A stretch of 64,000 nucleotides of DNA from positions 5,581-69,580 of the forward strand of contig JBEDEM010000003.1 in the NCBI GenBank assembly GCA_041175665.1, written 5' to 3'. Both the position numbers and the translations under genes were made by a program. This DNA is from Pseudomonadota bacterium (GTDB lineage: Bacteria; Pseudomonadota; Gammaproteobacteria; Burkholderiales; Burkholderiaceae_E). The notes under the pieces are model-generated. The model was not told the origin of the DNA. It made no database searches and saw nothing but the letters and a program-made list of their open reading frames with translations. Each line of letters opens with the position of its first letter. Position 1 is the first letter of the stretch. Below are positions 3,575 through 48,058 of this stretch, one piece after another.

Positions 3575-4138
3575 TCAGTGTTTCAGAAAACGATCGAGCA
3601 TTGCCATGCCATGCTCAGTATCGATGGATTCTGGATGAAATTGCAGGCCTTCGATTGGCAACTCCCGGTGTCGAACACCCATGATTTCTCCATCTTCGGT
3701 TTGCGCCGTAACCGACAAACTGTCGGGCAAGGTCGCGCGCTCGATAGCTAGCGAGTGATATCGGACGACTGAGAATTGGCGCGGCAGGCCTGTAAAAACA
3801 CCTTGATCCTGATGCGAAACAAGGCTTGACTTCCCATGCATAACTTGCTGAGCCCTGATTATTTTTCCACCAAAGACCTGTCCAATGGACTGGTGACCAA
3901 GACAGACCCCCAAGATCGGAATTTTCCCGCGGAAGTGCTTAATCGCTTGCATGGAAATACCCGCTTCATTGGGTGTGCAAGGCCCCGGTGAAATGACCAA
4001 GTGGCTTGGCTGCAATTGTTCTAAGTCATGCAAGTTAGCGGCATCGTTTCGTACCGTTACAACTTGCGCTCCTAAAGCCCGAAAATACTGAACTAAGTTA
4101 TAGGTGAAGGAATCATAGTTATCGATCATGAGTAGCAT
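3575..4138 (-). CDS. trpG: Anthranilate synthase component II (glutamine amidotransferase)
   Basis: [19 protein letters not shown], catalytic GVCLGHQ and FHPES motifs; 187 aa. Confidence 0.93.
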
Positions 4139-36538: not shown

Positions 36539-37516
36539 TTATGTGGATGCCAGCCAGGCACCATATTGAGTCAAATCAACATTGCCACCGCTCAGTAGCA
36601 CACCAATCTTCGCATCAGCGCCAAACTCGCGCTGTCGCATCGCTGCTGCGGCAGCCAGACAACCGGTCGGCTCAACAACAATTTTCATCCATTGTGCGAA
36701 AAACCGCATCGCTTCGATGAGCGCCTGATCAGACACGGTTTCGATGGCCGTTACTTGTTGCTGAATAATGGCAAAGGTTATATCACCTACACGGGTTGTA
36801 CGGGCACCGTCTGCGATGGTATCGGGTACATCGATACTCACCGGCTCGCCACGAGCAAAGGCCAGCTGAACATCATTGCCAGCCTCGGGCTCAACGCCAA
36901 TCACCTGACAACCTGGCGAAAGAGCACTTGCAGCCAAAGCACAACCCGATAAGAGACCGCCGCCGCCAAGGCAAACGAAGAGGGCATCGAGTCTTCCTAC
37001 CTCTTCGATCAACTCCATCGCGCTCGTACCCTGCCCTGCGATGACCATCGGATGGTCAAAGGGTGGAATGAGGCTAAAACCCTCGCGTTGAACAAGGGAC
37101 TTGGCCAGCGCCTCACGGTCCTCGGTCATGCGATCGTAGCGAACGATCTCAGCGCCAAAGGATTGCGCAGCTCGTACTTTTGCCGCCGGTGCGTCCGTGG
37201 GCATAACGACCACAGCTTTGACCGCTTCGATCTGGCAAGCCCTGGCAATCGCTTGACCGTGATTACCCGAGGAAAATGTGATGACACCAGCCGCGCGCTC
37301 GGCTTGGCTTAAAGCGCGGACCGCGTTTAAGGCACCACGAAACTTAAAGGCCCCTGTCCTTTGGAAATTCTCACACTTGAAAAACAGTCGAGCTCCTGCG
37401 CGCCGGTCTGCCTCGGCGCTGGTCAAGACAGGCGTTCGTCGAATCTGATCGGCGATCCGCGAGGCAGCCTCTTGGACTGCCTCAAAGCCTGGTGGCTTTG
37501 CCTGCTTAGTCTGCAT
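36539..37516 (-). CDS. PLP-dependent threonine/serine dehydratase (serine-racemase/threo-3-hydroxyaspartate ammonia-lyase-like)
   Basis: FKCENFQRTGAFKFRGALNA (PLP lysine), SSGNHGQA, GGGGLLSG. ATG at 37516; a GTG at 37531 would overlap the upstream gene. Confidence 0.85.
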   Translation of the reverse strand: MQTKQAKPPGFEAVQEAASRIADQIRRTPVLTSAEADRRAGARLFFKCENFQRTGAFKFRGALNAVRALSQAERAAGVITFSSGNHGQAIARACQIEAVKAVVVMPTDAPAAKVRAAQSFGAEIVRYDRMTEDREALAKSLVQREGFSLIPPFDHPMVIAGQGTSAMELIEEVGRLDALFVCLGGGGLLSGCALAASALSPGCQVIGVEPEAGNDVQLAFARGEPVSIDVPDTIADGARTTRVGDITFAIIQQQVTAIETVSDQALIEAMRFFAQWMKIVVEPTGCLAAAAAMRQREFGADAKIGVLLSGGNVDLTQYGAWLAST

Positions 37517-38537
37517 ATTGCCCAGCAGCACGGATGACTTTGCCCCATTTTTCGATCTCGGCGCTCAAATGAGTGCGCAGGCCATCAGGGGTTTGTTTGG
37601 AGACCGGCGTGATCTCAGCGCCTAAGTCCTTCATGCGCTTGACGACTTCAGGGTCTTTCAACGCAGCCTGCAAGGACACTGAGAGCTTCTCGATAGCAGC
37701 TTTCGGTGTGCCCTTGGGGGCATAAACACCATGCCAGACTACAACCTCGAAATCTTTCAAGCCTTGCTCATGCAATGTCGGCGCGTTGGGTAAGGCACCA
37801 ATGCGCGATTTGGTCGTAACGCCGAATAACTTAACTTTACCGGCATTGATTTGAGGAATTGTCTGGGTTGTTTGATCACACATCACATCAACATGGCCAC
37901 CTAAAAGTGCGGTCAATGCAGGTGCAGTGCCCTTGAAAGAAACCGTTGTTAGATCTGTGCCTAGTGTTTGCTGAAATAAGGTGCCACAAAGATGTGAGAC
38001 CGCGCCAAGTCCTGCATTGGCAAGATTAACCTTTTCCTTGTTTGACTTGATCCAGTTAATCAATTCCGGGAGATTCGATGCGGGTAGGTCATTTCTTGCG
38101 ATCAATGTCATCGGTACATCAACGGCCTGCCCGACATACTCATAGTCAGTCAAGGGATTAAACGGCAGTTTTCGATACAGGGCTGGGGCTGTGGCCATGC
38201 CATTGTGGTGGATGAACAAGGTGTAGCCATCGGGTTGCGCCTTGGCGACTAAGTTACCTGCAATCGTCGCCCCTGCACCGGGCCTGTTGTCAACATTAAC
38301 CACCTGGCCCAGCGATTTTGTCATCGACTGAGCTAACGCTCTAGCAACAATATCAGTAGGCCCCCCTGCTGCAAACCCGACAACAAGGGTAATGGGTTTG
38401 GTCGGATAGCTTTGGGCGTGCACAGCGGTGCTCGCAAAAAGGCTTGTGGCAATCGCCGCAGTAGCAAAACTTAGACCTACTGCAACTGAGGATCTAAGGG
38501 CATGTCTGCGTGCAGACATAAGCGTGGGTTTAAACAT
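37506..38537 (-). CDS. Bug family (TctC-like) tripartite tricarboxylate transporter substrate-binding protein
   Basis: Signal peptide followed by YPTKPITLVVGFAAGGPTDIVAR and the typical Bug pattern VDNRPGAGATIA. Confidence 0.88.
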   Translation of the reverse strand: MFKPTLMSARRHALRSSVAVGLSFATAAIATSLFASTAVHAQSYPTKPITLVVGFAAGGPTDIVARALAQSMTKSLGQVVNVDNRPGAGATIAGNLVAKAQPDGYTLFIHHNGMATAPALYRKLPFNPLTDYEYVGQAVDVPMTLIARNDLPASNLPELINWIKSNKEKVNLANAGLGAVSHLCGTLFQQTLGTDLTTVSFKGTAPALTALLGGHVDVMCDQTTQTIPQINAGKVKLFGVTTKSRIGALPNAPTLHEQGLKDFEVVVWHGVYAPKGTPKAAIEKLSVSLQAALKDPEVVKRMKDLGAEITPVSKQTPDGLRTHLSAEIEKWGKVIRAAGQYAD

Positions 38538-38622
38538 ATGAGGACTCCTTTTTCGCGCTATGATTTTTGATGCGCTGTCATGTTACTAAAATCTGATCGT
38601 TTTCAAAGCCGGCTTCAATCAG

Positions 38623-38660
38623 CTTACGACGATTGAGCGAACTTACAACGATTGAGCAAA
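38623..38660. repeat. 19-bp tandem duplication (17/19) spanning the stop codon of the CaiB-family gene
   Basis: cttacgacgattgagcgaa (38623-38641) and cttacaacgattgagcaaa (38642-38660). The second copy encodes the real C-terminus ...FAQSL-stop. Confidence 0.85.
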
Positions 38661-39776
38661 CTCCCGACGGATCGCCTCGCCATGTTGATCGATTGACGGA
38701 GCAGGATCAAATGACCCGTTTTGCCAATCAGCATCAAATGGGGGCGCCATCATGTCAATTTGAGCTTCCCCAAGCGGCATTTTCCAATAACGGGCCTGGG
38801 CATGTTTCGCAACCGCCTCAACACTATTGATCCCACCAAATGCAATATCTGCTTCTTGCAGAGCGTCTTCCATATCACGACGGCTACGCGCCGCAAAACG
38901 CTGTCCAATCAGGGCATCAAGCGCATCACGATGCTTGACGCGGTCAGCGTTTTCTTTAAACCGCGGGTCTTGGGCGAGCGAGGCATCACCCAGTACCTGT
39001 TCACACAAGCGTGCAAACTCCCGATTATTCTGAACTGAAATGAGCAAGATTTCGCCATCGGCACATTCAAAGCCACCATAGGGTGCAATCGAAGGATGCT
39101 TCAATCCCACGCGGGCCGGCGCCTTATCGCTATAAATTTGATGCAGTAGCGGTACGGCCATCCAGTCAAAAGCGCCAGAGAAAAGCGACACATGCAAACG
39201 CGCTCCCTGACCGGTTCGTTCTCTCAAAAACAAGGCTTGCTGGACAGCCGAGAGTGCATACATGCCGGCACCAATATCGCATAGGCTTACGCCAATCCTG
39301 CCATAAGCTTGAGGCGGGCCACTAACTGCAAGCAGGCCAGACTCGCCTTGCACCAAAAAATCATAGGCCTTTAAGTTCGCGCGTTCGCCTTCTCGGCCAT
39401 AACCCGAAATATCGAGGGTAATCAATCGGGGATGCTGTGCGCGCAAAGCTTCAGAACCGATCCCCAGACGCTCGACTGCGCCAGGTGCGAGATTTTGTAT
39501 GAAGACATCGGCGTTTGCGATCATCCGCTTCATCAGCGCCAGATCATCCGCCTGTTTCAAATCAAGCGCGATGGACTCTTTGCCTGTATTGAGCCAAAGA
39601 AAATAAGAGGCATGCCCGTGCACTGCCCGGTCGTAGCCCCGTGCAAAATCACCTTCCGGCCTCTCAACCTTAATCACACGAGCGCCAGCCTGAGCGAGTC
39701 GCGAAGAACAATAAGGCGCAGCGACCGCTTGCTCAAGTGATACAACAGTGATCCCTTCAAATGGCTTTCTCATCAT
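38643..39776 (-). CDS. CaiB/BaiF family (class III) CoA-transferase
   Basis: FEGITVVSLEQAVAAPYCSSRLAQAGARVIKVERPEGDFAR. Its start overlaps the M16 peptidase stop (ATGA). Confidence 0.88.
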   Translation of the reverse strand: MMRKPFEGITVVSLEQAVAAPYCSSRLAQAGARVIKVERPEGDFARGYDRAVHGHASYFLWLNTGKESIALDLKQADDLALMKRMIANADVFIQNLAPGAVERLGIGSEALRAQHPRLITLDISGYGREGERANLKAYDFLVQGESGLLAVSGPPQAYGRIGVSLCDIGAGMYALSAVQQALFLRERTGQGARLHVSLFSGAFDWMAVPLLHQIYSDKAPARVGLKHPSIAPYGGFECADGEILLISVQNNREFARLCEQVLGDASLAQDPRFKENADRVKHRDALDALIGQRFAARSRRDMEDALQEADIAFGGINSVEAVAKHAQARYWKMPLGEAQIDMMAPPFDADWQNGSFDPAPSIDQHGEAIRREFAQSL

Positions 39777-42580
39777 GGGCTCTTCTTTGAAACAAAGTCA
39801 CCTGCTGTGATCGTGATCAGATCGCTCAAACGAACATAACGTCGAAAAGCCTCATTCACTTCTTCGAGCTTGATCGATGCCCTCAAGTCCCGCATCGCTT
39901 GCAAATGGTCCACAGCACGCGAATGCTCCTCGAGCCAGTTTAAGGTCCCAGCAAGCACGGATTCTTGGGCCCAGGCTAAATTGATCTGGGCTTCGAGACC
40001 GTGCTTGGCCTTTTGCAATTCACCTTCTTGAAAACCTTGGCCATTGGCACGCTCAAACTCCTCACGCAAAGCCTGCTGCAACCGATCTAGATTCTGCGGT
40101 GCGAAAATTGCGTAAAACATGATTGAGCTGGCTCTACCCGGCTCCCCACCCGAAAGCGATCCGCCAACACCGTAACTGAGCCCTTCCTTTTCACGAACCC
40201 GGTCCCATAAACGACCTGTGGGTGATCCGCCTCCCGCAAAGATTCGGATAGCCAAACGCAATGCCTGGTAGGCCCTTTGGTCATCAGCAAGCTCAAAGCG
40301 TTGCTGGGCAAGCCAAACCGCATTCTTCTTCTCGGGCGTGTCGATGCGCTGGGTATGCGCCCTGATATCGAGCGCAGGTCGGGGAATACGCTCATAAGCG
40401 ACAAGCGCTGGACGTTTGGCCTGCCATTGCTTCCAAAAATCCGTCCATGCCCGGTTCAAGCGCTCCGATGATACATCGCCGATTAGGCTCACCGACATCG
40501 GCCCTGGACGCACAAAACGATCCCAGAATGCTTTAACGTCCTCAAGACGCAATGACTTAATGCTTTGCAAGCTCTCCTCAAAACTGGGCACATAGCGAGG
40601 GTCGCCCTTTGGATAGCTCGAGAGCTTGGCGGCCATCGAACGGAAGGCGATGGCTTGCGGATCTTGACGCGAAGACTCGATCGAGGCGATGGCAGAGGCT
40701 TTCAACTCCTCAAACTCAGCAGCATCAAAGGCTGGTTCCGTCAAGGCCTTTAGCAGGAGCCCGAGACCATCTTCGAGACGGTCGGCAGGCAGCTTGAGCG
40801 AAACATTCAAGCCTTCTGCTCCGCCTTGCAAACTCCAGGTTGCTTTAAGCGCAGTCATCGCCTCGGCGAAATCTTTTCTGGACTGCCCAACAACACCCCT
40901 GGATAACATGGCAATTGCCATCGAAGCCATATCGGTCTGATTTTGCAGATCTTTCAAATTACCATAGCGAAGACTAGCCTGCAGCACGACCAGATTCGAA
41001 GCGCTCCGCTTGTTTATGCTTTGCAAAACCAAACCCGGCAGCGGCTTTTCGATCTTAAGTCGTGCCTTGATGTTAGAAGGCGAAACATCAAAAGCTTCGC
41101 CCTGTTCACTTGCCCCTCTTGGCGAGAAGCCTGCCATGGCATCGCTCACGGAGGCCTGACGCTGCTCGGGCGATCTCAAGGGCTTTTGCTCGGGCTCGAA
41201 AATACCTAAGCTGCGATTACTTTCGATCCAAAACGCTGCAGCAACCCGATTGACATCTTCGAGTTTTGTTGCAGCAATACGATCTCTTTGTTGAAACAAC
41301 ATACGCCAATCACCAAGCGCAATCGACTCCGATAGGTTGTAGGCTACGCGCTCGGGGTCAGCTAGCATTTGTTCATATTGGGTCAAAAAATGGGCCTTTG
41401 CCGCAACTAGCTCTTTTTCAGTAAAGGGTTCGCGCAGGAGCGACTCCGTCAGATCGAGCAGCGATTGCCTCGCCTTCTCTGTGGACTGATCTGATTTTAA
41501 TTGCAAGGCAAAAATAACATTCGAGGGTTCGGGTGCAGAACGCGCCCATCCCCAAATCCCAGCTGCAAGACCCTTCTTGACAATGCGCTCGCTGATTCGG
41601 TTATTCGGACCGCCCATCATATGGGTGGCGAGTATCATGGCTGGGAAGTCTCGGTGAAGTGCCGATGGCGCATGGTAAGAAAGCACAATCGCAGGCGCCT
41701 CACCGACCCTGCGCAGCTTGAGCTCACGAGCTCCTTCTTGGACAGGCTCAACGGTGTAGGTTGGCTCAAGCAAACGGGTTGGCTTTGCCAAGCCGCCAAA
41801 GGCTTCGTGCACCCATGCAATAACCTTGTCTTGATCGAATGCACCACTCACGAACAAGGCTGCATTGTCGGGCTGATAGTGATGCTGATAAAACCGCTTT
41901 AATCGTTCGATCGATACATTTTCAATGTCAGAACGGGTGCCGATAATTGCTTTGCCATAGTTGTGCCAAGTGTAAGCGGCAGCAAAAACCTGTTGATATA
42001 AAACACCGACAGGATTGTTCTCACCGCGCTCAAATTCATTGCGAACCACTGTCATTTCAGAGTCAAGGTCTTGCTTCCGGATATAAGCGTTGACCAACAC
42101 ATCCCCGAGCCACTGGATCATCCATTGGGTATTTTCATCGCTCCGGGGGAAACTTGCGAAATAATTAGTACGATCCCAGGATGTCGTGCCATTGACGCGA
42201 AAACCACGGCTCGATAATTCAGCGATGCCTGTAGGGAACTTTGGCGAACCCTTAAAAACCAAATGTTCGAGTAAATGCGCCATACCGGTTTCACCATAAC
42301 CCTCATGACGCGACCCAACATTGACTGTCAGATTAATCGTTGTCGAGGCCTTGGTCGCATTGGGATACAGAATCAGCTGCAAACCATTGGGTAATCGGTA
42401 GGACATCATGCCCTCAACCTGATGAATCGGTTGACCCGCCCAGGCTGGCTGTGTTTGAGCAAAAGCACCAGGCGCTGTCACGCCAAGCGTTATTGCCATC
42501 ATGACAAAAGACAGTGTTTGCCCAAAAAGAGTGATCATTCGCCCAAAAAGCTTGGTGAGGAAGCGATCAAGCAGACGCAT
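39773..42580 (-). CDS. M16 family (pitrilysin/insulinase-type) zinc peptidase, double-module 935-aa form, exported
   Basis: Inverted zinc motif HxxEH (GMAHLLEHLVFKG), N-terminal hydrophobic signal, and a second inactive M16-like half. Confidence 0.88.
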   Translation of the reverse strand: MRLLDRFLTKLFGRMITLFGQTLSFVMMAITLGVTAPGAFAQTQPAWAGQPIHQVEGMMSYRLPNGLQLILYPNATKASTTINLTVNVGSRHEGYGETGMAHLLEHLVFKGSPKFPTGIAELSSRGFRVNGTTSWDRTNYFASFPRSDENTQWMIQWLGDVLVNAYIRKQDLDSEMTVVRNEFERGENNPVGVLYQQVFAAAYTWHNYGKAIIGTRSDIENVSIERLKRFYQHHYQPDNAALFVSGAFDQDKVIAWVHEAFGGLAKPTRLLEPTYTVEPVQEGARELKLRRVGEAPAIVLSYHAPSALHRDFPAMILATHMMGGPNNRISERIVKKGLAAGIWGWARSAPEPSNVIFALQLKSDQSTEKARQSLLDLTESLLREPFTEKELVAAKAHFLTQYEQMLADPERVAYNLSESIALGDWRMLFQQRDRIAATKLEDVNRVAAAFWIESNRSLGIFEPEQKPLRSPEQRQASVSDAMAGFSPRGASEQGEAFDVSPSNIKARLKIEKPLPGLVLQSINKRSASNLVVLQASLRYGNLKDLQNQTDMASMAIAMLSRGVVGQSRKDFAEAMTALKATWSLQGGAEGLNVSLKLPADRLEDGLGLLLKALTEPAFDAAEFEELKASAIASIESSRQDPQAIAFRSMAAKLSSYPKGDPRYVPSFEESLQSIKSLRLEDVKAFWDRFVRPGPMSVSLIGDVSSERLNRAWTDFWKQWQAKRPALVAYERIPRPALDIRAHTQRIDTPEKKNAVWLAQQRFELADDQRAYQALRLAIRIFAGGGSPTGRLWDRVREKEGLSYGVGGSLSGGEPGRASSIMFYAIFAPQNLDRLQQALREEFERANGQGFQEGELQKAKHGLEAQINLAWAQESVLAGTLNWLEEHSRAVDHLQAMRDLRASIKLEEVNEAFRRYVRLSDLITITAGDFVSKKSP

Positions 42581-42622
42581 GGATGACCTTTGTACAAAAA
42601 TAAGACTGAAAGGAGCGAGAGC

Positions 42623-44866
42623 TTACCAGTGCGCCTGCACCGCCAAACGCAAGCTGCGTGCTTGAACAGGGAATAGATAAGTACCACCCCAATACTGGGT
42701 GGGCGCCTCACGCCAATCAGCTCTATCGAGAAGATTGTTAACTGCCAGGGTCCAACGCAAGCGCAGTTTCGGCAGGCTCTGCTGCCAAGTTAAAGCGCTA
42801 TCCCACTGCCAGCGTGCAGGAAGTGCTAACGCGACATCGCCCGCCGACTCGGTTGAAAGTAAGACGGGCTTGCGTCCGATGGCGTAGATGCGGTTTTGCC
42901 ACTGCCAATCGGGCTGAGCTAATGGCCAACGGTGCATCAGATGAGCACTCCAGGGCGCAACATTTAGGACCGGTGCGGCTGCTTGGTTGGGGCTTAAGGC
43001 GTCGATCAGCTTGGCTTGGCTGCGTTGCGCAGCAAATTGAAACTGGCCTAAGCTTCGCGTTTTTAGGCTCGCCTGCCATTCAAGTCCTTGGTGCCTTGCA
43101 AGATTGGCGCCACCCACACGTTCGAGGGCAGGGCCTTCGCCGGTCGCGTCCACAGAAATATCAGCAGCACTCGGTCGCTCCATACGAAAGGCCGTGAGCG
43201 CGATCTGCGCTTGAACGCCCGCGGTATCAGACCAAAGTTTGCGCAGGCTTGCCTCCCATTGCTTGCTGCGCTGGGGCGGGAGTAACTGGGCTGCATTGCG
43301 ATAAATACTCGGGCGATTCGGTACCACATCGGTTTCAACACCCTCGGCATAGGATAGGTAAGCGTGCTGAAAGCCGCCGGTTTCATAACTCAAGGCCAGC
43401 AATGGGCTGCTAAAGCTTTGTTCAAACGCCGTCGCTCGCTGGCCGTCACTTCGTGCTGAACGGGCCTCAATCAAGGTGTTGCGCAGCCCAGCCCAAACAA
43501 CCCAAGGCCCAGACCACTGCAAACGGTCCTGAAAAGAAAACTCGCGGGTGGAAAGCCATCGATTACTATTTAAGCTATCGGCGAGTGGGTTTGCGTCGAG
43601 CATGACCGAGGCGAAATAGTTGGTAACGCCGACCCAGTTATAGGCTTGACTTGGCTCAAGTTGCTCGCCCAATCGGGTTTTCTTGAATGCGATTGCCATT
43701 TGATGCTTGGCACCAGCAATGGTTTTCTGTCCCTCCAGACGAAGCTCGTTGGCGCGGCTTAACCTTCGCTCGTTTAGGCTACGGTAGTCATACAAATCGG
43801 CATCGCCATTGGCACAAAACCCCGGATAAAGGTATTCGGCACCCGAGCTGCAACCGTCCGGAAAGGCGATACGGTCATTGGTACGAAGCGCTTGAAACGA
43901 ACTGGCGGCCCGTACTACCCAGTCTGCACCGAGACTCTGACTCCAACGCAAAGCACTCGCCGTTTCCTGACTCTCAAAAGGTGCTGACCAAGCCTGATCA
44001 TTCAAGTTGCGTCGCGGCAATACGGCAGGGAGTAATCGCCCATCGAGAAGGCTCGCACCGGGCACTGAGATTTGTGAATACAAATGGCGCTCGACATCCC
44101 ACGTCAAAAGCCCACCGCCTGGCATTTTCCAATCGATCAAGGCAGAAAGGAACTGCCGATCGCCGGGGGCGCGCTCGACCATGGGTCGCCTCGTCTCAGT
44201 GGCGAGATTCAACCGCACACCAAGAGCGCCAGAAGACCCGAAACGGTCTGAGAGATCCGCCGCAGCGTAGCGGGTACCACGCTCCGACAGGCTAAAAACT
44301 GCACTTCGGATGGCCTCGCTACCGGGCCGTTTGAGCACAAAATCGACCATACCACCCGGTGAGGAACTGCCCGCAAACATGCCCGAAGCACCCTTGAGTA
44401 CAAGCACCGAAGCCTTGTTTTCAAAGGCAACTGGCGCATGCCCGTTAACCGGCATGCCGTCTCGCCGATAGTTGAGCCGAGGATCAATCAGAAAGCCCCG
44501 AATCGCAAAGTTTTCGGGATAGCCCAGTGTGTTGTATGCATCCGAAACTGCCGGATCGCTTCGCAGTACATCCGATAGAGCTTGAAGCCCGAAGGACTTG
44601 AGCGCCTCGGTGTCGATGTTCGTGATCGCAAAAGGCAGGTTTTGCAAAGGGCTCGCAAAGCCTGTCAGCGAGGCGGCTTCGGTCTGAAGGCTGCTGCTGC
44701 GGACTTCGAGTCGCTCTTGCTGAGCCCAGGCATTTGAAAGCGAGCCCAAACATAAGGCATGCACCGCGCAGATCATGCCTATGAATGGAGACTGGCTTTG
44801 TGCTTGCGCGCCTGCTTTCGATAAAACCCGCGATTTCAATGGAGCACGCTGTTTACCTTTATCCAT
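42623..44866 (-). CDS. TonB-dependent outer-membrane receptor
   Basis: Plug-domain motifs (VLKGASGMFAGSSSPGGMVDFV), beta-barrel repeats, and a C-terminal aromatic terminus ...LAVQAHW. ATG at 44866 is preceded by AAGGAA. A TPP riboswitch lies in the 5' leader. Confidence 0.88.
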   Translation of the reverse strand: MDKGKQRAPLKSRVLSKAGAQAQSQSPFIGMICAVHALCLGSLSNAWAQQERLEVRSSSLQTEAASLTGFASPLQNLPFAITNIDTEALKSFGLQALSDVLRSDPAVSDAYNTLGYPENFAIRGFLIDPRLNYRRDGMPVNGHAPVAFENKASVLVLKGASGMFAGSSSPGGMVDFVLKRPGSEAIRSAVFSLSERGTRYAAADLSDRFGSSGALGVRLNLATETRRPMVERAPGDRQFLSALIDWKMPGGGLLTWDVERHLYSQISVPGASLLDGRLLPAVLPRRNLNDQAWSAPFESQETASALRWSQSLGADWVVRAASSFQALRTNDRIAFPDGCSSGAEYLYPGFCANGDADLYDYRSLNERRLSRANELRLEGQKTIAGAKHQMAIAFKKTRLGEQLEPSQAYNWVGVTNYFASVMLDANPLADSLNSNRWLSTREFSFQDRLQWSGPWVVWAGLRNTLIEARSARSDGQRATAFEQSFSSPLLALSYETGGFQHAYLSYAEGVETDVVPNRPSIYRNAAQLLPPQRSKQWEASLRKLWSDTAGVQAQIALTAFRMERPSAADISVDATGEGPALERVGGANLARHQGLEWQASLKTRSLGQFQFAAQRSQAKLIDALSPNQAAAPVLNVAPWSAHLMHRWPLAQPDWQWQNRIYAIGRKPVLLSTESAGDVALALPARWQWDSALTWQQSLPKLRLRWTLAVNNLLDRADWREAPTQYWGGTYLFPVQARSLRLAVQAHW

Positions 44867-44974
44867 GCTTGTCGATTCCTTGTTCGAACCTTCGAACACT
44901 GCAGAGACAAGATAAAAGGCTCGGAATACGGCTCGGATCACAGTTGAGCATGGCTGCAACTGCCTCCGAACACA

Positions 44975-45095
44975 CGCTTCCCTGCGCAAGTCTTAACTCG
45001 ATCAGGTTCGAAGGGTTTTTCTCACCCGTCTGCAAGCAGACGCCCCAAAGCGCGTTAGCGATGTGGCGGTTTTACGGGACCCCTAGCGAAGAGCG
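44975..45095 (-). promoter_or_regulatory. TPP (THI-box) riboswitch aptamer in the leader of the TonB-dependent receptor gene
   Basis: The minus strand reads CGCUCUUCGCUAGGGGUCCCGU...ACGGGUGAGAAAAACCCUUCGAACCUGAUCGAGUUAAGACUUGCGCAGGGAAGCG. It contains the conserved GGGG, UGAGA, ACCCUU-GAACCUGAUC and CAGGGAA blocks with P2 (CCCGU/ACGGG), P5 (CGAGU/ACUUG) and P1 pairing. Confidence 0.85.
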
Positions 45096-45197
45096 AACCC
45101 TAGCACATGACAAAACGAAGTCAGCGCAATGCTTAGGACTCGATTGAGGTTATCGCAAGGCGTTTTGTTCTTCTCAGGTGCCTTTCGACATGGTGAA

Positions 45198-45806
45198 TCA
45201 GTCCAAGCACCGGCGAGCGAGCATTGCTCGCACCATAGTCAAACGTTGCTCAAAGCCGCCTTGAAGCAACTCGACCCTGTCATGGCCAATCGCTGCTTGC
45301 AAAGGTGGGTACTGCTCAATGAGCACGCGGCTAAGTGCACGCTGACCAGGCCCATCGCGCTGCACGCCGTCCGCCTGCCAGGCGATGTCATCAGCGCAGT
45401 GAAAATGGAGCCAGCGAAAACGATAAGTTTCGGCTAAGTCCAGCATCAAGTGCTTGGCCTTGGCAAATAGGCTGGCATCGCCAAAGTACTGCAAGCTGTA
45501 AACAGCAGTCATCCAAGGAGAGGTGTCACAGATCAACACGGGACCGATTGGAGCGCGGTCAAGTCCGCAAAGTGCCTTGTCGATCGCATCGCATTGGGCC
45601 ATCAAGATTGCCTCTTGCTCATCCTGGCGCGGACTGCGCTGATGCTCCCCAACAAATAATCGCAGGGTCTCGGGTACATAACCGAGCTTGAGCGTGTGTG
45701 CCAGAGACTGTGCAAGCTTGGTTTTGCCTGTGCACTCGCCACCAAGCATCGCAATCACACTCACTTGGTGCATCGCGCCCAAGGGCTTTTGCTGCAAAGC
45801 TTGCAT
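45198..45806 (-). CDS. P-loop ATPase/kinase related to the ribosylnicotinamide-kinase domain of NadR
   Basis: Walker A GGECTGKTKLAQ. ICDTSPWMTAVYSLQYFG and DIAWQADGVQRDGPGQR parallel the NadR C-terminal domain blocks. The start is uncertain (ATG 45806 or 45773; the ORF extends to 45932). Confidence 0.7.
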   Translation of the reverse strand: MQALQQKPLGAMHQVSVIAMLGGECTGKTKLAQSLAHTLKLGYVPETLRLFVGEHQRSPRQDEQEAILMAQCDAIDKALCGLDRAPIGPVLICDTSPWMTAVYSLQYFGDASLFAKAKHLMLDLAETYRFRWLHFHCADDIAWQADGVQRDGPGQRALSRVLIEQYPPLQAAIGHDRVELLQGGFEQRLTMVRAMLARRCLD

Positions 45807-45861
45807 GATGGTTGCCTGCCAACCCAATCGCTCAAGAACGCTTGTTGATGGCCGATTTTCA

Positions 45862-46422
45862 TCAGCTTGAGGCTTTATTGATTGCGAGCTGCCGCTGCCA
45901 TTGCCGCAAACCCACCATGGCAAGAAGCGCAAAGAGCAGATACAGACCCGCTGTTGCTTTCAAGCCCTGAAGCCAGAAAAGCCCCACGCCCATCAGGTTT
46001 GCCGCAAGCCAAAACAACCAATGTTCAAGCCTTTGACGCACCATAAGAATCTGGGCTACAAGGCTGAATGCGCCAACAAAAGCGTCAGCAAGCGCAGCAT
46101 GGCCTCCCATGCTGGCGAGCAAACCATAGAGCGCAAGCCAGCATAAACAGGCACAAGACAAAGCGGCTAACCTTGCCCTCACAGGCATGACACCAGGTGA
46201 AAACACTTGTCGGCCCCAGCGCAGCCAACCCCAAACCGCCGCAAGCATAAAAACAAGCTGCAAGGCAGTATCGGCCCATAGCTTTGCCTCGGCAAAAATC
46301 CTGAGGTAAAGCAGGCTAGAAATCAGCCAGAAAACCCAAGTGATGCGTCGACCCAACACACCGAGGCCCACAGCCGTCAAGGCCGTAAAGACAGCGAGCC
46401 ACTCGATCCAATCCTGGCTCAA
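45862..46422 (-). CDS. PnuC-family vitamin transporter (nicotinamide riboside PnuC or thiamine PnuT type)
   Basis: IEWLAVFTALTAVGLGVLGRRITWVFWLISSLLY...WADTALQLVFMLAAVWGWLRW matches the Pnu family pattern; about 6-7 TM helices; 186 aa. Confidence 0.8.
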   Translation of the reverse strand: MSQDWIEWLAVFTALTAVGLGVLGRRITWVFWLISSLLYLRIFAEAKLWADTALQLVFMLAAVWGWLRWGRQVFSPGVMPVRARLAALSCACLCWLALYGLLASMGGHAALADAFVGAFSLVAQILMVRQRLEHWLFWLAANLMGVGLFWLQGLKATAGLYLLFALLAMVGLRQWQRQLAINKASS

Positions 46423-46464
46423 TTCGCGATAACCTCCCTACCAGGGTTTACCTCACCGACCACC

Positions 46465-46860
46465 ATGTTTCAATCACTCACAACCCATTGGACAGCCTGG
46501 CTCAGCCAGGCAAGCTTCGGACAAATCACACTTATTAGTGGATCGATGCTTATTGTTTCCAATGTTTTCATGACCTGGGCATGGTACGGCCATTTAAAGC
46601 ATCTGGCCGACAAACCCTGGTGGTGGGCAGCCTTGATCAGCTGGGGCATTGCTTTGTTTGAATATTTGCTCCAAGTGCCAGCCAATCGCATCGGTTTTGC
46701 CCAACTCAACCTCGGACAGCTCAAAATCATGCAAGAGGTGATCACGCTGGCTGTCTTTTTGCCGTTTTCCATGCTGGTGATGAACCAGCCTTTTAAGCTC
46801 GACTATCTATGGGCTGGGCTTTGCCTGGTGGGCGCGGTTTACTTCATCTTTAGGGCCTAA
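46465..46860 (+). CDS. DMT-like small membrane protein, DUF486 family
   Basis: SNVFMTWAWYGHLK ... FEYLLQVPANRIG ... LKIMQEVITL is the DUF486 signature; 131 aa. Confidence 0.8.
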   Translation: MFQSLTTHWTAWLSQASFGQITLISGSMLIVSNVFMTWAWYGHLKHLADKPWWWAALISWGIALFEYLLQVPANRIGFAQLNLGQLKIMQEVITLAVFLPFSMLVMNQPFKLDYLWAGLCLVGAVYFIFRA

Positions 46861-46942
46861 GCCGGTGCTTGATCTGAGCCCGCGTCAAACGCTCCTCAAG
46901 CCCATGGCTGCGTTTTCCCCGCTTTCGCTTTAGCATTGCCTT

Positions 46943-48058
46943 ATGGGAAATCATCGTAGCACCGACCGTTGGCTTGGGATTGCCGCAGCAATCGTCTTGC
47001 TGATTGCCGCTGTGCTGGTGGTTTTGCCGTTTTTTAGCGCCCTTCTCTGGGCGGCGATTGTGAGTATTACCTTATGGCCGCTGCGCGACTTAATGGCCCA
47101 CAAGATGAGATTGGGTCGTGGTTTGGCTGCGAGTTTCATCAGTCTGGCCTTATTGAGCCTGCTTGTTGCGCCGATAGCAGCGGCAAGCGTTTTGCTTGCG
47201 AACTATACCGAAGACCTTTTAAGCCAAGTCCGCCATCTGATGCAAGACGGACTGCCCGAACCACCGCTATGGCTCGGCACCATCCCACTGCTGGGGCAAT
47301 GGCTTGCTGATCAATGGGCCCACTATCGTCATGATGGGAGCGCGCTGCTTGCGCAGTCCTTAGCGCTGCTCGAGCAACACCGTGGCTTGATTTTGAGCGC
47401 GGCTAGAGAAGTAAGCAGCGGGATCGCTGAACTGCTTATCGCTGTGTTTTTATCGTTTTTTGTTTTACGCGATGGCGAAAGGATCGCGGCCTGGTTAAAC
47501 CAGGGCGCCCGACGACTTTCAGCCGAAGGACCTGAGTTATTGAGCCTTACTGCCCGAACGATTGAAGGCGTCGTCTACGGTATCGTCGGCACGGCCTTGG
47601 TATCGGGCTTATTAGGATGGGCGGGCTATGCCTTGGCAGGCGTGCCCAAAGCATTCACCTTAGGACTACTTACCTTCTTGGGGGCTTTTGTACCCTTTGG
47701 CACAGCGCTTGTTTGGGGGCCAGCGGCATTTTGGCTGCTTCAACAAGGTGAAATGCCCTGGGCCATATTCATGCTGGTCTGGGGTGCTTTGGTTATTTCA
47801 AGTGCAGACAACGTGATTAAACCCATGCTGATTAGCCGAGGTTCGGCCATGCCTTTCGTGCTCACCTTGGTGGGTGCTGTGGGAGGCGTCATTGCCTTCG
47901 GCGTGATCGGGGTATTTTTAGGACCTACATTGATGGCCTTGGCCTGGTTTCTTGTGATGCAGTGGATGGCTCGCGCCTTGCCGATGCCGAATCAGCAAAC
48001 CATTGCTTCAAACCCGAAACACAACGCTGAAGCTGAAGATCAAGACGATGCGCGATGA
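46943..48058 (+). CDS. AI-2E family transporter (PerM/YhhT-like)
   Basis: Eight hydrophobic helices. FVPFGTALVWGPAAFWLL and ISSADNVIKPMLISRG motifs are typical of the family. Confidence 0.82.
   Translation: MGNHRSTDRWLGIAAAIVLLIAAVLVVLPFFSALLWAAIVSITLWPLRDLMAHKMRLGRGLAASFISLALLSLLVAPIAAASVLLANYTEDLLSQVRHLMQDGLPEPPLWLGTIPLLGQWLADQWAHYRHDGSALLAQSLALLEQHRGLILSAAREVSSGIAELLIAVFLSFFVLRDGERIAAWLNQGARRLSAEGPELLSLTARTIEGVVYGIVGTALVSGLLGWAGYALAGVPKAFTLGLLTFLGAFVPFGTALVWGPAAFWLLQQGEMPWAIFMLVWGALVISSADNVIKPMLISRGSAMPFVLTLVGAVGGVIAFGVIGVFLGPTLMALAWFLVMQWMARALPMPNQQTIASNPKHNAEAEDQDDAR

Follow-up and report, generated by a model that had tools for sequence, protein, structure and literature searches.

The window analysed here, a stretch of 64,000 nucleotides (nt) of contig JBEDEM010000003.1 from a bacterium of the Burkholderiales, carries on its minus strand a thiamine pyrophosphate (TPP) riboswitch aptamer, identified from sequence and conserved structure at positions 45088-44975. 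The aptamer is housed in the 331-nt gap between the stop codon of a kinase gene (45198) and the ATG (44866) of a gene for a TonB-dependent outer-membrane receptor. It very likely stands at the 5' end of the receptor mRNA, where TPP would repress the receptor, and would serve a thiamine salvage line made up of the receptor, a Pnu-family inner-membrane channel, a NadR-like kinase and ThiL.

Identity and conservation of the aptamer

The first-pass annotation had recognized the THI-box elements on the minus strand of the gap. Both of the strings that it quoted were found in place on that strand, CUAGGGGUCCCGU at 45086-45074 and ACGGGUGAGAAAAACCCUUCGAACCUGAUCGAGUUAAGACUUGCGCAGGGAAGCG, which reads ACGGGUGAGA...CAGGGAAGCG, at 45029-44975. 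Homologues of the receptor, which has relatives in at least 585 stretches of species-representative genomes, were collected and 27 of them were aligned; 80 receptor loci, all from Burkholderiales and with receptors mutually 35-95% identical, were fetched from species-representative genomes. A custom covariance model, trained with the window left out on 13 orthologous elements of the long class described below, matched 44972-45091 end to end (92.3 bits, E ~1e-18). The same model placed a single element in each locus, immediately before the receptor homologue, and the TPP core lies 150-350 nt ahead of the receptor gene in every locus of the 80-locus set with upstream sequence. The element thus directly precedes the receptor gene in the window, as had been claimed at first reading, and does likewise in the homologous loci.

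A default scan of the window with the Rfam gathering thresholds returned two tRNAs only, leaving the TPP element unreported. With permissive filters, the Rfam TPP model (RF00059) matched 45057-44963 at 46.4 bits (E = 4.6e-8 in a 451-nt search), and genome-wide (2.85-Mb assembly) the same match (E = 6.8e-8) was the sole TPP match. This search had been proposed by the first-pass annotation, which named a sub-threshold score as evidence against itself. The match is significant; its score lies under the gathering score of 54.3 bits, an operational threshold and no biological property, and so formally speaks against the identification, a shortfall that is put down here to misalignment. Five of the seven long-class relatives searched (L004, L006, L009, L013 and L034) pass the cut-off with 59.9-67.7 bits, and in these orthologues RF00059 uses the 5' half proposed in the annotation and takes the junction as a loop insertion of 38-70 nt. 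The other two, L024 (53.6 bits) and L002, the window's closest relative (45.9 bits), fall below it, and the copies of the same-genus genomes G001, G003 and G004 lie above it (58.9-61.3 bits). The score of the window is low because the model pairs the 3' half with a nearer, non-conserved GGGG, so that the 5' half is misaligned. Since relatives and same-genus copies exceed the cut-off, the low score is an alignment artefact of this copy and no evidence against membership of the family.

The conserved 5' half across the loci reads (A)CGCUAGGGGU, as the annotation had proposed, and is invariant in 75 sequences. The nucleotides of the ligand pocket, UGAGA (J3/2) and ACCUGAU...GCG.AGGGA (P4/P5), are invariant or at least 90% conserved in the 75 sequences, the window included. 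The loci that have the gene order termed layout B below carry ACUUGAUC in the 3' core instead of ACCUGAUC.

Covariation was counted in 79 distinct sequences in a model-based alignment, the fit to the model biasing the counts towards structure. This alignment was preferred because plain MAFFT on both structural classes displaced the 3' strand of P2 by one column in the canonical class. Standard pairs fill 95.0% of the cells, as against 33-51% once the partners are slid by 1-3 columns, and compensatory change occurs at 19 pairs; none of 500 shuffles attains any of these measures. The slid and shuffled controls therefore indicate that the signal is real despite the model-fitted alignment. Covarying pairs were found in P1 (two), in P3 (three of four, the first being C-G in one class and G-C in the other) and in P4/P5 (three). 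P2 is nearly invariant and hence uninformative on pairing. Of the covariation that had been described for P1, P2 and P5, that of P1 and of the P4/P5 arm stands, and P2 neither supports nor contradicts the claim.

The branched P3 and a nested alternative fold

The aptamers fall into two classes that differ in P3. Those of the canonical class (34 sequences) read GGGGU-GCUGG...CCGGC-UGAGA, and those of the long class (41 distinct sequences, window included) read GGGGU-CCCG-[yAyAAAUC]-hairpin-hairpin-CGGG-UGAGA, with 40-94 nt inserted. The extended P3 insert that had been seen at first reading is thus present in the relatives as well; in the window it measures 46 nt. The same two-hairpin three-way junction (P3, P3a, P3b) is predicted in 41 of 41 long-class inserts, which fold better than their dinucleotide shuffles (mean z = -3.0; 90% below -2), and compensatory change is seen at seven of the seven pairs of P3a and four of the five of P3b. 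Judged by this common fold and its covariation, the three-way junction with its conserved A-rich strand is an elaboration of the TPP aptamer. In locus L003, NN at 3720-3722 (masked, or a scaffold gap) breaks the orthologous aptamer at the very place expected for the 5' half, and this locus is uninformative on the 5' half.

The aptamer resembles the known TPP riboswitches of RF00059 in P1-P5, which include the usual pyrimidine arm (P2/P3 with UGAGA) and pyrophosphate arm (P4/P5), and in the UGAGA and ACCUGAU...CAGGGA cores. Like them it stands in the 5' leader of a gene related to thiamine, and the same off-switch logic is expected of it. It differs from them in that P3 is a three-way junction with an A-rich strand and two hairpins (40-94 nt) rather than a simple stem-loop, in that the optional stem that follows UGAGA in the Rfam consensus is absent from the window's aptamer, and in the score of the window copy. 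Extended but unbranched P3 stems are known in Klebsiella, Serratia, plants and fungi, and can affect discrimination against pyrithiamine (PMC12632268).

The Rfam match in the window corresponds to a nested, shorter TPP-like fold (Table 1), in which GUCUGC/GCAGAC serves as P3, two pairs are non-canonical and 3 nt are inserted ahead of UGAGA. This fold is found in the window and L002 only. That the short form (45057-44963) is the functional aptamer here, the upstream CGCUAGGGGUCCCG being a leftover, is highly improbable, even though its P1' has 8-9 bp compared with 4 bp in the conserved P1, the fold emerges in RNAfold once the true 5' strand is blocked, and Rfam chooses it in exactly the two genomes with a degenerate P3a. 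Its P2 requires a U-U and a C-A mismatch, three extra nucleotides stand between P3 and UGAGA beside the pyrimidine pocket, and its GGGG is unconserved even among the nearest members of the clade, L004 carrying GAUG there. The upstream 5' half, on the other hand, is kept throughout the 75 sequences, the full-length alignment reaches 92 bits, and the co-transcriptional order favours the upstream strands. The nested fold is therefore probably not the functional one; it could be a chance by-product of the decay of P3a, or an alternative or misfolded state.

Table 1 Features of the riboswitch locus in the window
Feature	Coordinates	Strand	Basis or remark
TPP riboswitch aptamer, P1 to P1	44975-45088	-	RF00059, custom model, covariation, mapped structure
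P1 (CGCU/AGCG)	45088-45085 with 44978-44975	-	mapped structure
P2	45084-45081 with 45015-45012	-	mapped structure
P3	45078-45075 with 45028-45025	-	mapped structure
UGAGA	45024-45020	-	mapped structure
P4/P5 pyrophosphate arm	45006-44981	-	mapped structure
P3 elaboration, three-way junction	45029-45074	-	common fold in long class, covariation
A-rich strand UAAAAC	45074-45069	-	part of P3 elaboration
Hairpin P3a, partly degenerate	45068-45041	-	part of P3 elaboration
Hairpin P3b (UCUG-CUUG-CAGA)	45040-45029	-	part of P3 elaboration
Nested alternative Rfam alignment	44963-45057	-	P1' ACGCGCUU/AAGCGUGU; P2' from GGGG of P3a 3' strand; P3b as P3
Candidate promoter of receptor transcript	45097-45124	-	by eye and conservation; -35-like CTGACT (45124-45119), 16-nt spacer, extended -10 TGcTAGGGT (-10 hexamer 45102-45097)
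Predicted expression platform, 108-nt leader	44867-44974	-	RNAalifold, five clade members
Aptamer 3' strand GGGAAGCG	44982-44975	-	partner of pyrimidine-rich strand
Pyrimidine-rich strand CCGUAUUCC	44931-44923	-	complementary to aptamer 3' strand and Shine-Dalgarno (SD) region
Anti-SD UCUUGU	44912-44907	-	platform element
CUCUGC	44906-44901	-	platform element
Hairpin UGUUCGA-AGGU-UCGAACA	44898-44881	-	platform element
SD AAGGA	44881-44877	-	platform element
TonB-dependent outer-membrane receptor gene, 747 aa	42623-44866	-	PF07715, TIGR01783, homologues; ATG at 44866
Stand-alone P-loop kinase gene, 202 aa, candidate thiamine kinase	45198-45806	-	PF13521; Walker A GGECTGKT; from ATG 45806
Pnu-family (PnuC/PnuT) inner-membrane channel gene, candidate thiamine channel	45862-46422	-	PF04973 128.5 bits, TIGR01528 77.6 bits

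Promoter, expression platform and mode of control

The receptor probably has its own promoter, with a transcript that starts about at P1, as suggested by the conserved placement of a -10 box: a TATAAT-like box (at least 5/6) stands 7-9 nt before P1 in 30 of the 41 long-class loci, compared with 0.3% expected by chance. Its place is taken in the window's clade (L002, L004, L006) by a conserved CATGTGCTAnnnT, which can be read as an extended -10 together with a CTGACT -35. A sigma-70 consensus scan left this candidate promoter unflagged. In the canonical class (L043-L081), a TACAAT/TATAAT box stands 30-35 nt before P1, and a small conserved hairpin outside the Rfam model, for example GGACAUGCAGAUUGCAUGCCC or CAGGCCGGUGUAAACCGGUCCUG, lies between the likely start site and P1.

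In the leader that follows the aptamer, RNAalifold pairs the aptamer 3' strand with the pyrimidine-rich strand in 5/5 clade sequences and, in the same clade, CUUGU(GC) with (GC)ACAAG of the SD region. In the window, the SD region CAAGGAAUCG and the aptamer strand CAGGGAAGCG agree in 8 of 10 positions. These pairings fit the classical translational scheme of one anti-SD strand that serves both the aptamer and the ribosome-binding site. Of 68 leaders across the family, 55 have a C(C/U)CUGC, complementary to GCAGGG of the aptamer, 15-60 nt ahead of the AUG, where about 10 would be expected; in the majority of loci it overlaps the 5' arm of a GCC(A/G)UCG...CGAUGGC hairpin that buries the start codon. 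At -17 to -26 kcal/mol, the switching duplexes of L003, L004 and L006 are much stronger than those of the window. Translational control is therefore probably the mode, a reading that draws on conservation in the relatives, the window by itself giving no significant signal.

The arrangement is like that of the Escherichia coli thiM and thiC platforms, where an anti-SD strand pairs with either the 3' side of the aptamer or the SD/AUG region. It differs from them in sequences and register; in most relatives a CCCUGCC(A/G)UCG/CGAUGGC hairpin encloses the AUG, and the window's clade has a different arrangement, predicted to be weaker. At high TPP, the aptamer would close P1 and free the pyrimidine-rich strand of the leader, which would then pair with the ribosome-binding region, so that less receptor would be made; secondary Rho-dependent termination or mRNA decay may follow. 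At low TPP, the 3' strand of the aptamer would pair with the pyrimidine strand, leaving the ribosome-binding site free.

Several properties of the window's own copy weigh against such a switch, in addition to the RF00059 score. Equilibrium folding with the aptamer enforced, unconstrained or 5'-blocked left the accessibility of SD and AUG unchanged (mean over the ribosome-binding site 0.45 versus 0.44), and neither the duplex of aptamer strand and platform nor that of platform and ribosome-binding site is better than shuffles (z = +0.4 and -0.8). P1 has only 4 bp, followed by a U-U mismatch. The P3 insert folds at z = +0.3 because its P3a is partly degenerate, a condition confined to the window and L002.

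These results bear on two other accounts of the element. A mainly transcriptional control, by Rho-dependent termination within the 108-nt leader or early in the coding region, is conceivable, if rather unlikely. Several proteobacterial riboswitches act through Rho, the leader is long, no terminator-like site was found on this strand between aptamer and AUG, and the thermodynamic models give no switch at SD and AUG. The pairing that is conserved in the clade and the family, however, involves SD and AUG, and both modes can coexist. The element might also be a decaying relic, still recognizable as an aptamer and no longer regulating, with the receptor constitutive in an obligate auxotroph. The sub-threshold Rfam score, the short and mismatched P1, the degenerate P3a and the lack of significant platform complementarity in the window would all fit. 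Set against this are ligand-contacting core nucleotides that are all intact, and an element that is kept together with its spacing and platform blocks in L002-L006 and five same-genus genomes; it is also the sole TPP sensor of the genome. We regard a relic as very unlikely, and a TPP-repressed, probably translational switch remains the preferred reading.

The receptor, its neighbours and the thiamine supply of the host

The receptor has the plug domain (PF07715, 45 bits) and the beta-barrel of about 600 residues that characterize TonB-dependent receptors. TIGR01783 aligns with residues 77-745 at 150 bits, under its cut-off of 223.5 bits; the homologues are full-length and many carry PF00593. 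The N-terminus is signal-peptide-like and ends in AWA-QQ. The pre-sequence (44866-44723, minus strand) is unusually long, with 48 residues before this cleavage-like site; translation might instead begin at an internal ATG (M31), but a good SD precedes the upstream ATG only. On the downstream side, an M16 peptidase gene begins 43 nt after the receptor stop codon (42580-42623, minus strand), followed by overlapping CoA-transferase and TctC genes (36539-42580, minus strand), a synteny of M16 peptidase and CoA-transferase seen only in the closest relatives (L002-L006). No terminator-like site was seen between the receptor and M16 peptidase genes, so the riboswitch might influence the downstream genes by read-through.

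The thiamine genes of the host's genus were surveyed in six genomes (93-97% complete). ThiC, ThiD, ThiE, ThiG and ThiB are absent across the genus, and TIGR01378, the model for thiamine pyrophosphokinase (TPK), has no match in the genome or in 12 relatives. ThiL is present across the genus (290 bits, cut-off 184). In ThiC-bearing relatives, a TPP element stands ahead of thiC. By this gene content, the genus cannot make thiamine and is unlikely to use precursors, so the intact vitamin must be imported, and ThiL has to be supplied by a kinase that turns thiamine into thiamine monophosphate (TMP). For all three steps, the cluster linked to the riboswitch is the only recognizable candidate; an E. 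coli-type ThiK was not searched for. The first-pass annotation had proposed thiamine or a precursor as the cargo of the receptor. The riboswitch and the genomic context strengthen the prediction of thiamine; because ThiD and ThiE are absent, import of a precursor is unlikely to be useful, and intact thiamine is the likelier cargo. The genome G008, from the same family, has no ThiC and has ThiD (two copies), ThiE and ThiG; its Pnu gene lies on another contig than the TPP element, and no kinase of the present NadR-like family was found in it. It is probably a case of a different auxotrophy, for hydroxymethylpyrimidine only, with a different wiring of the same parts.

Upstream of the kinase gene lies the gene for the Pnu-family channel. 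The WxxW(x)3D/N motif of transmembrane helix 6 marks this family (PMC5749112); it reads WLFWLAAN at residue 135 of the window's protein, and the motif occurs in 10 of 10 orthologues checked. The family profile of the kinase matches the ribosylnicotinamide kinase (RNK) domains of NadR (9x6f, 8x7f, 1lw7) over the whole domain, with E values of 2e-14 to 3e-13, and a search of solved structures with the single sequence gave generic P-loop matches only. Its AlphaFold2 model (pLDDT 90.8) has NadR as best Foldseek match (TM-score 0.60-0.66, the top being 8x7f with 0.66). By Walker A motif, whole-domain profile and fold, the protein belongs with the NadR RNK family. The longest open reading frame of the kinase opens at TTG 45932 and overlaps the end of the Pnu gene (45806-45932, minus strand); homologues and the position of the P-loop place the real start at ATG 45806 (or 45773). 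In high-GC relatives, the kinase reading frame has long spurious N-terminal extensions. In the same-genus genome G003 (C1:20623-21228), the kinase match is split in two on one strand (profile positions 6-74 and 78-176), which suggests a frameshift or an assembly error.

About 60 of the 80 loci keep receptor, Pnu gene and kinase gene together as a trio, arranged in one of two ways. The window has the order pnu-kinase-[TPP]-receptor; in the other arrangement, layout B, found in about 25 loci, one riboswitch heads all genes in the order [TPP]-receptor-pnu-kinase or [TPP]-receptor-kinase. The linkage holds even where the receptors are only 35-43% identical. Within the genus, the Pnu gene adjoins the TPP element; it is single-copy and occurs in ThiC-less relatives only. 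Of 25 relatives sampled independently, 11 have a strong kinase match (at least 160 bits), which in 8 of these 11 lies no more than 160 nt from the TPP element. The kinase occurs in 10 of 14 ThiC-less genomes and in 1 of 12 ThiC-containing ones; counted by genus, the proportions are 5/9 and 1/12 (Fisher estimate roughly p = 0.03, with no phylogenetic correction). The layout-B operons and the anticorrelation with ThiC make the Pnu protein a candidate PnuT-type channel. Weaker kinase paralogues (95-110 bits) exist in ThiC-containing genomes far from any TPP element (G020, C1:1934435-1934938 and 3173651-3174136; G021, C11:11922-12428). These may be true nicotinamide-riboside kinases, useful as an outgroup for specificity-determining residues.

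The assignment of the channel and the kinase to thiamine has evidence against it. In databases and family models, the Pnu protein goes under the name of nicotinamide-riboside transporter and the kinase under that of nicotinamide-riboside kinase. In the window's layout, both genes precede the riboswitch and lack a TPP element of their own, and a permissive Rfam scan upstream of the Pnu gene (46350-47000) returned nothing, the NAD+-II/pnuC motif included; the two are tied to thiamine by synteny and by the layout-B operons of other genomes. The two could be an ordinary pair for nicotinamide-riboside salvage that lies beside a thiamine receptor whose cargo goes to another inner-membrane carrier. 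TIGR01528 scores above its cut-off, 'nicotinamide riboside kinase' is the name used by some sources, and the closest relatives in structure and sequence are the RNK domains of NadR. Yet about 25 loci have receptor-pnu-kinase or receptor-kinase behind one TPP riboswitch, the linkage persists across the distant receptors, and Pnu gene and kinase are enriched in ThiC-less genomes. The genus, moreover, has ThiL and no TPK, ThiB or other recognizable thiamine kinase or transporter, ThiK of the E. coli type being outside the search. A nicotinamide-riboside pair is thus unlikely, and a role of both proteins in thiamine salvage is preferred.

In gene content, the cluster has a close counterpart in the OMthi-PnuT-Tnr3 (TPK) module of Bacteroides thetaiotaomicron (BT2390, BT2396-97), a module controlled by TPP riboswitches and backed by the phenotypes of knockouts (PMC5613172). 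In both, a TonB-dependent receptor, a Pnu channel and a trapping kinase are clustered behind TPP riboswitches, and split and single-operon layouts both occur; PnuT works by facilitated diffusion with trapping by a kinase (PMC5749112). The Burkholderiales cluster differs in its kinase, which is a P-loop NadR-RNK homologue and no TPK, so that TPP would need two steps, by the kinase and then by ThiL. Its hosts also differ, being Burkholderiales, many of them lacking thiamine biosynthesis. PnuC-NadR salvage of nicotinamide riboside has the same two protein families and the same logic, here predicted, of a channel with kinase trapping. Unlike NadR, the kinase described here is stand-alone, lacks the nicotinamide mononucleotide adenylyltransferase and DNA-binding domains and has about 20% identity to NadR, and in the genomes it goes with a TPP riboswitch and thiamine auxotrophy rather than with NAD genes.

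In the proposed line, which is conserved in the Burkholderiales, the receptor would provide the outer-membrane step and bring thiamine to the periplasm, and the Pnu-family channel would pass it to the cytoplasm. There the kinase would trap it as TMP, and ThiL would turn TMP into TPP, which would feed back on the riboswitch. More tentatively, and on balance with slightly more doubt than confidence, we propose that the kinase is an unrecognized thiamine kinase that completes, with the receptor, a PnuT-type channel and ThiL, the sole thiamine line of these freshwater Burkholderiales without ThiC, ThiD, ThiE and ThiG, and that the three-way-junction P3 is a functional elaboration, tuning for example L5-P3 docking or ligand discrimination, and not neutral padding. 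The literature searched holds no account of this cluster in Burkholderiales and none of a thiamine-kinase activity in this kinase family; the candidate kinase, and a putative complete salvage line from the outer membrane to TPP in a thiamine auxotroph, are a newer lead than the riboswitch itself.

In summary, model searches, covariation and gene linkage identify a TPP riboswitch ahead of the receptor gene, and its case carries a lesson for annotation: a branched P3 insert can lure the Rfam model into a spurious local alignment and leave a real TPP riboswitch under the cut-off. Public names for the proteins of the cluster are 'iron complex outermembrane receptor', 'nicotinamide riboside transporter', 'AAA family ATPase' and 'nicotinamide riboside kinase', of which the two nicotinamide riboside names are probably wrong here. 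The riboswitch assigns a testable ligand, thiamine, to a large family of otherwise anonymous receptors of the first name. If the kinase prediction is true, the step from thiamine to TMP would be filled in bacteria that have ThiL and neither ThiK nor TPK, and the line as a whole would explain how a streamlined freshwater lineage is supplied with the vitamin after the loss of its thiamine synthesis.

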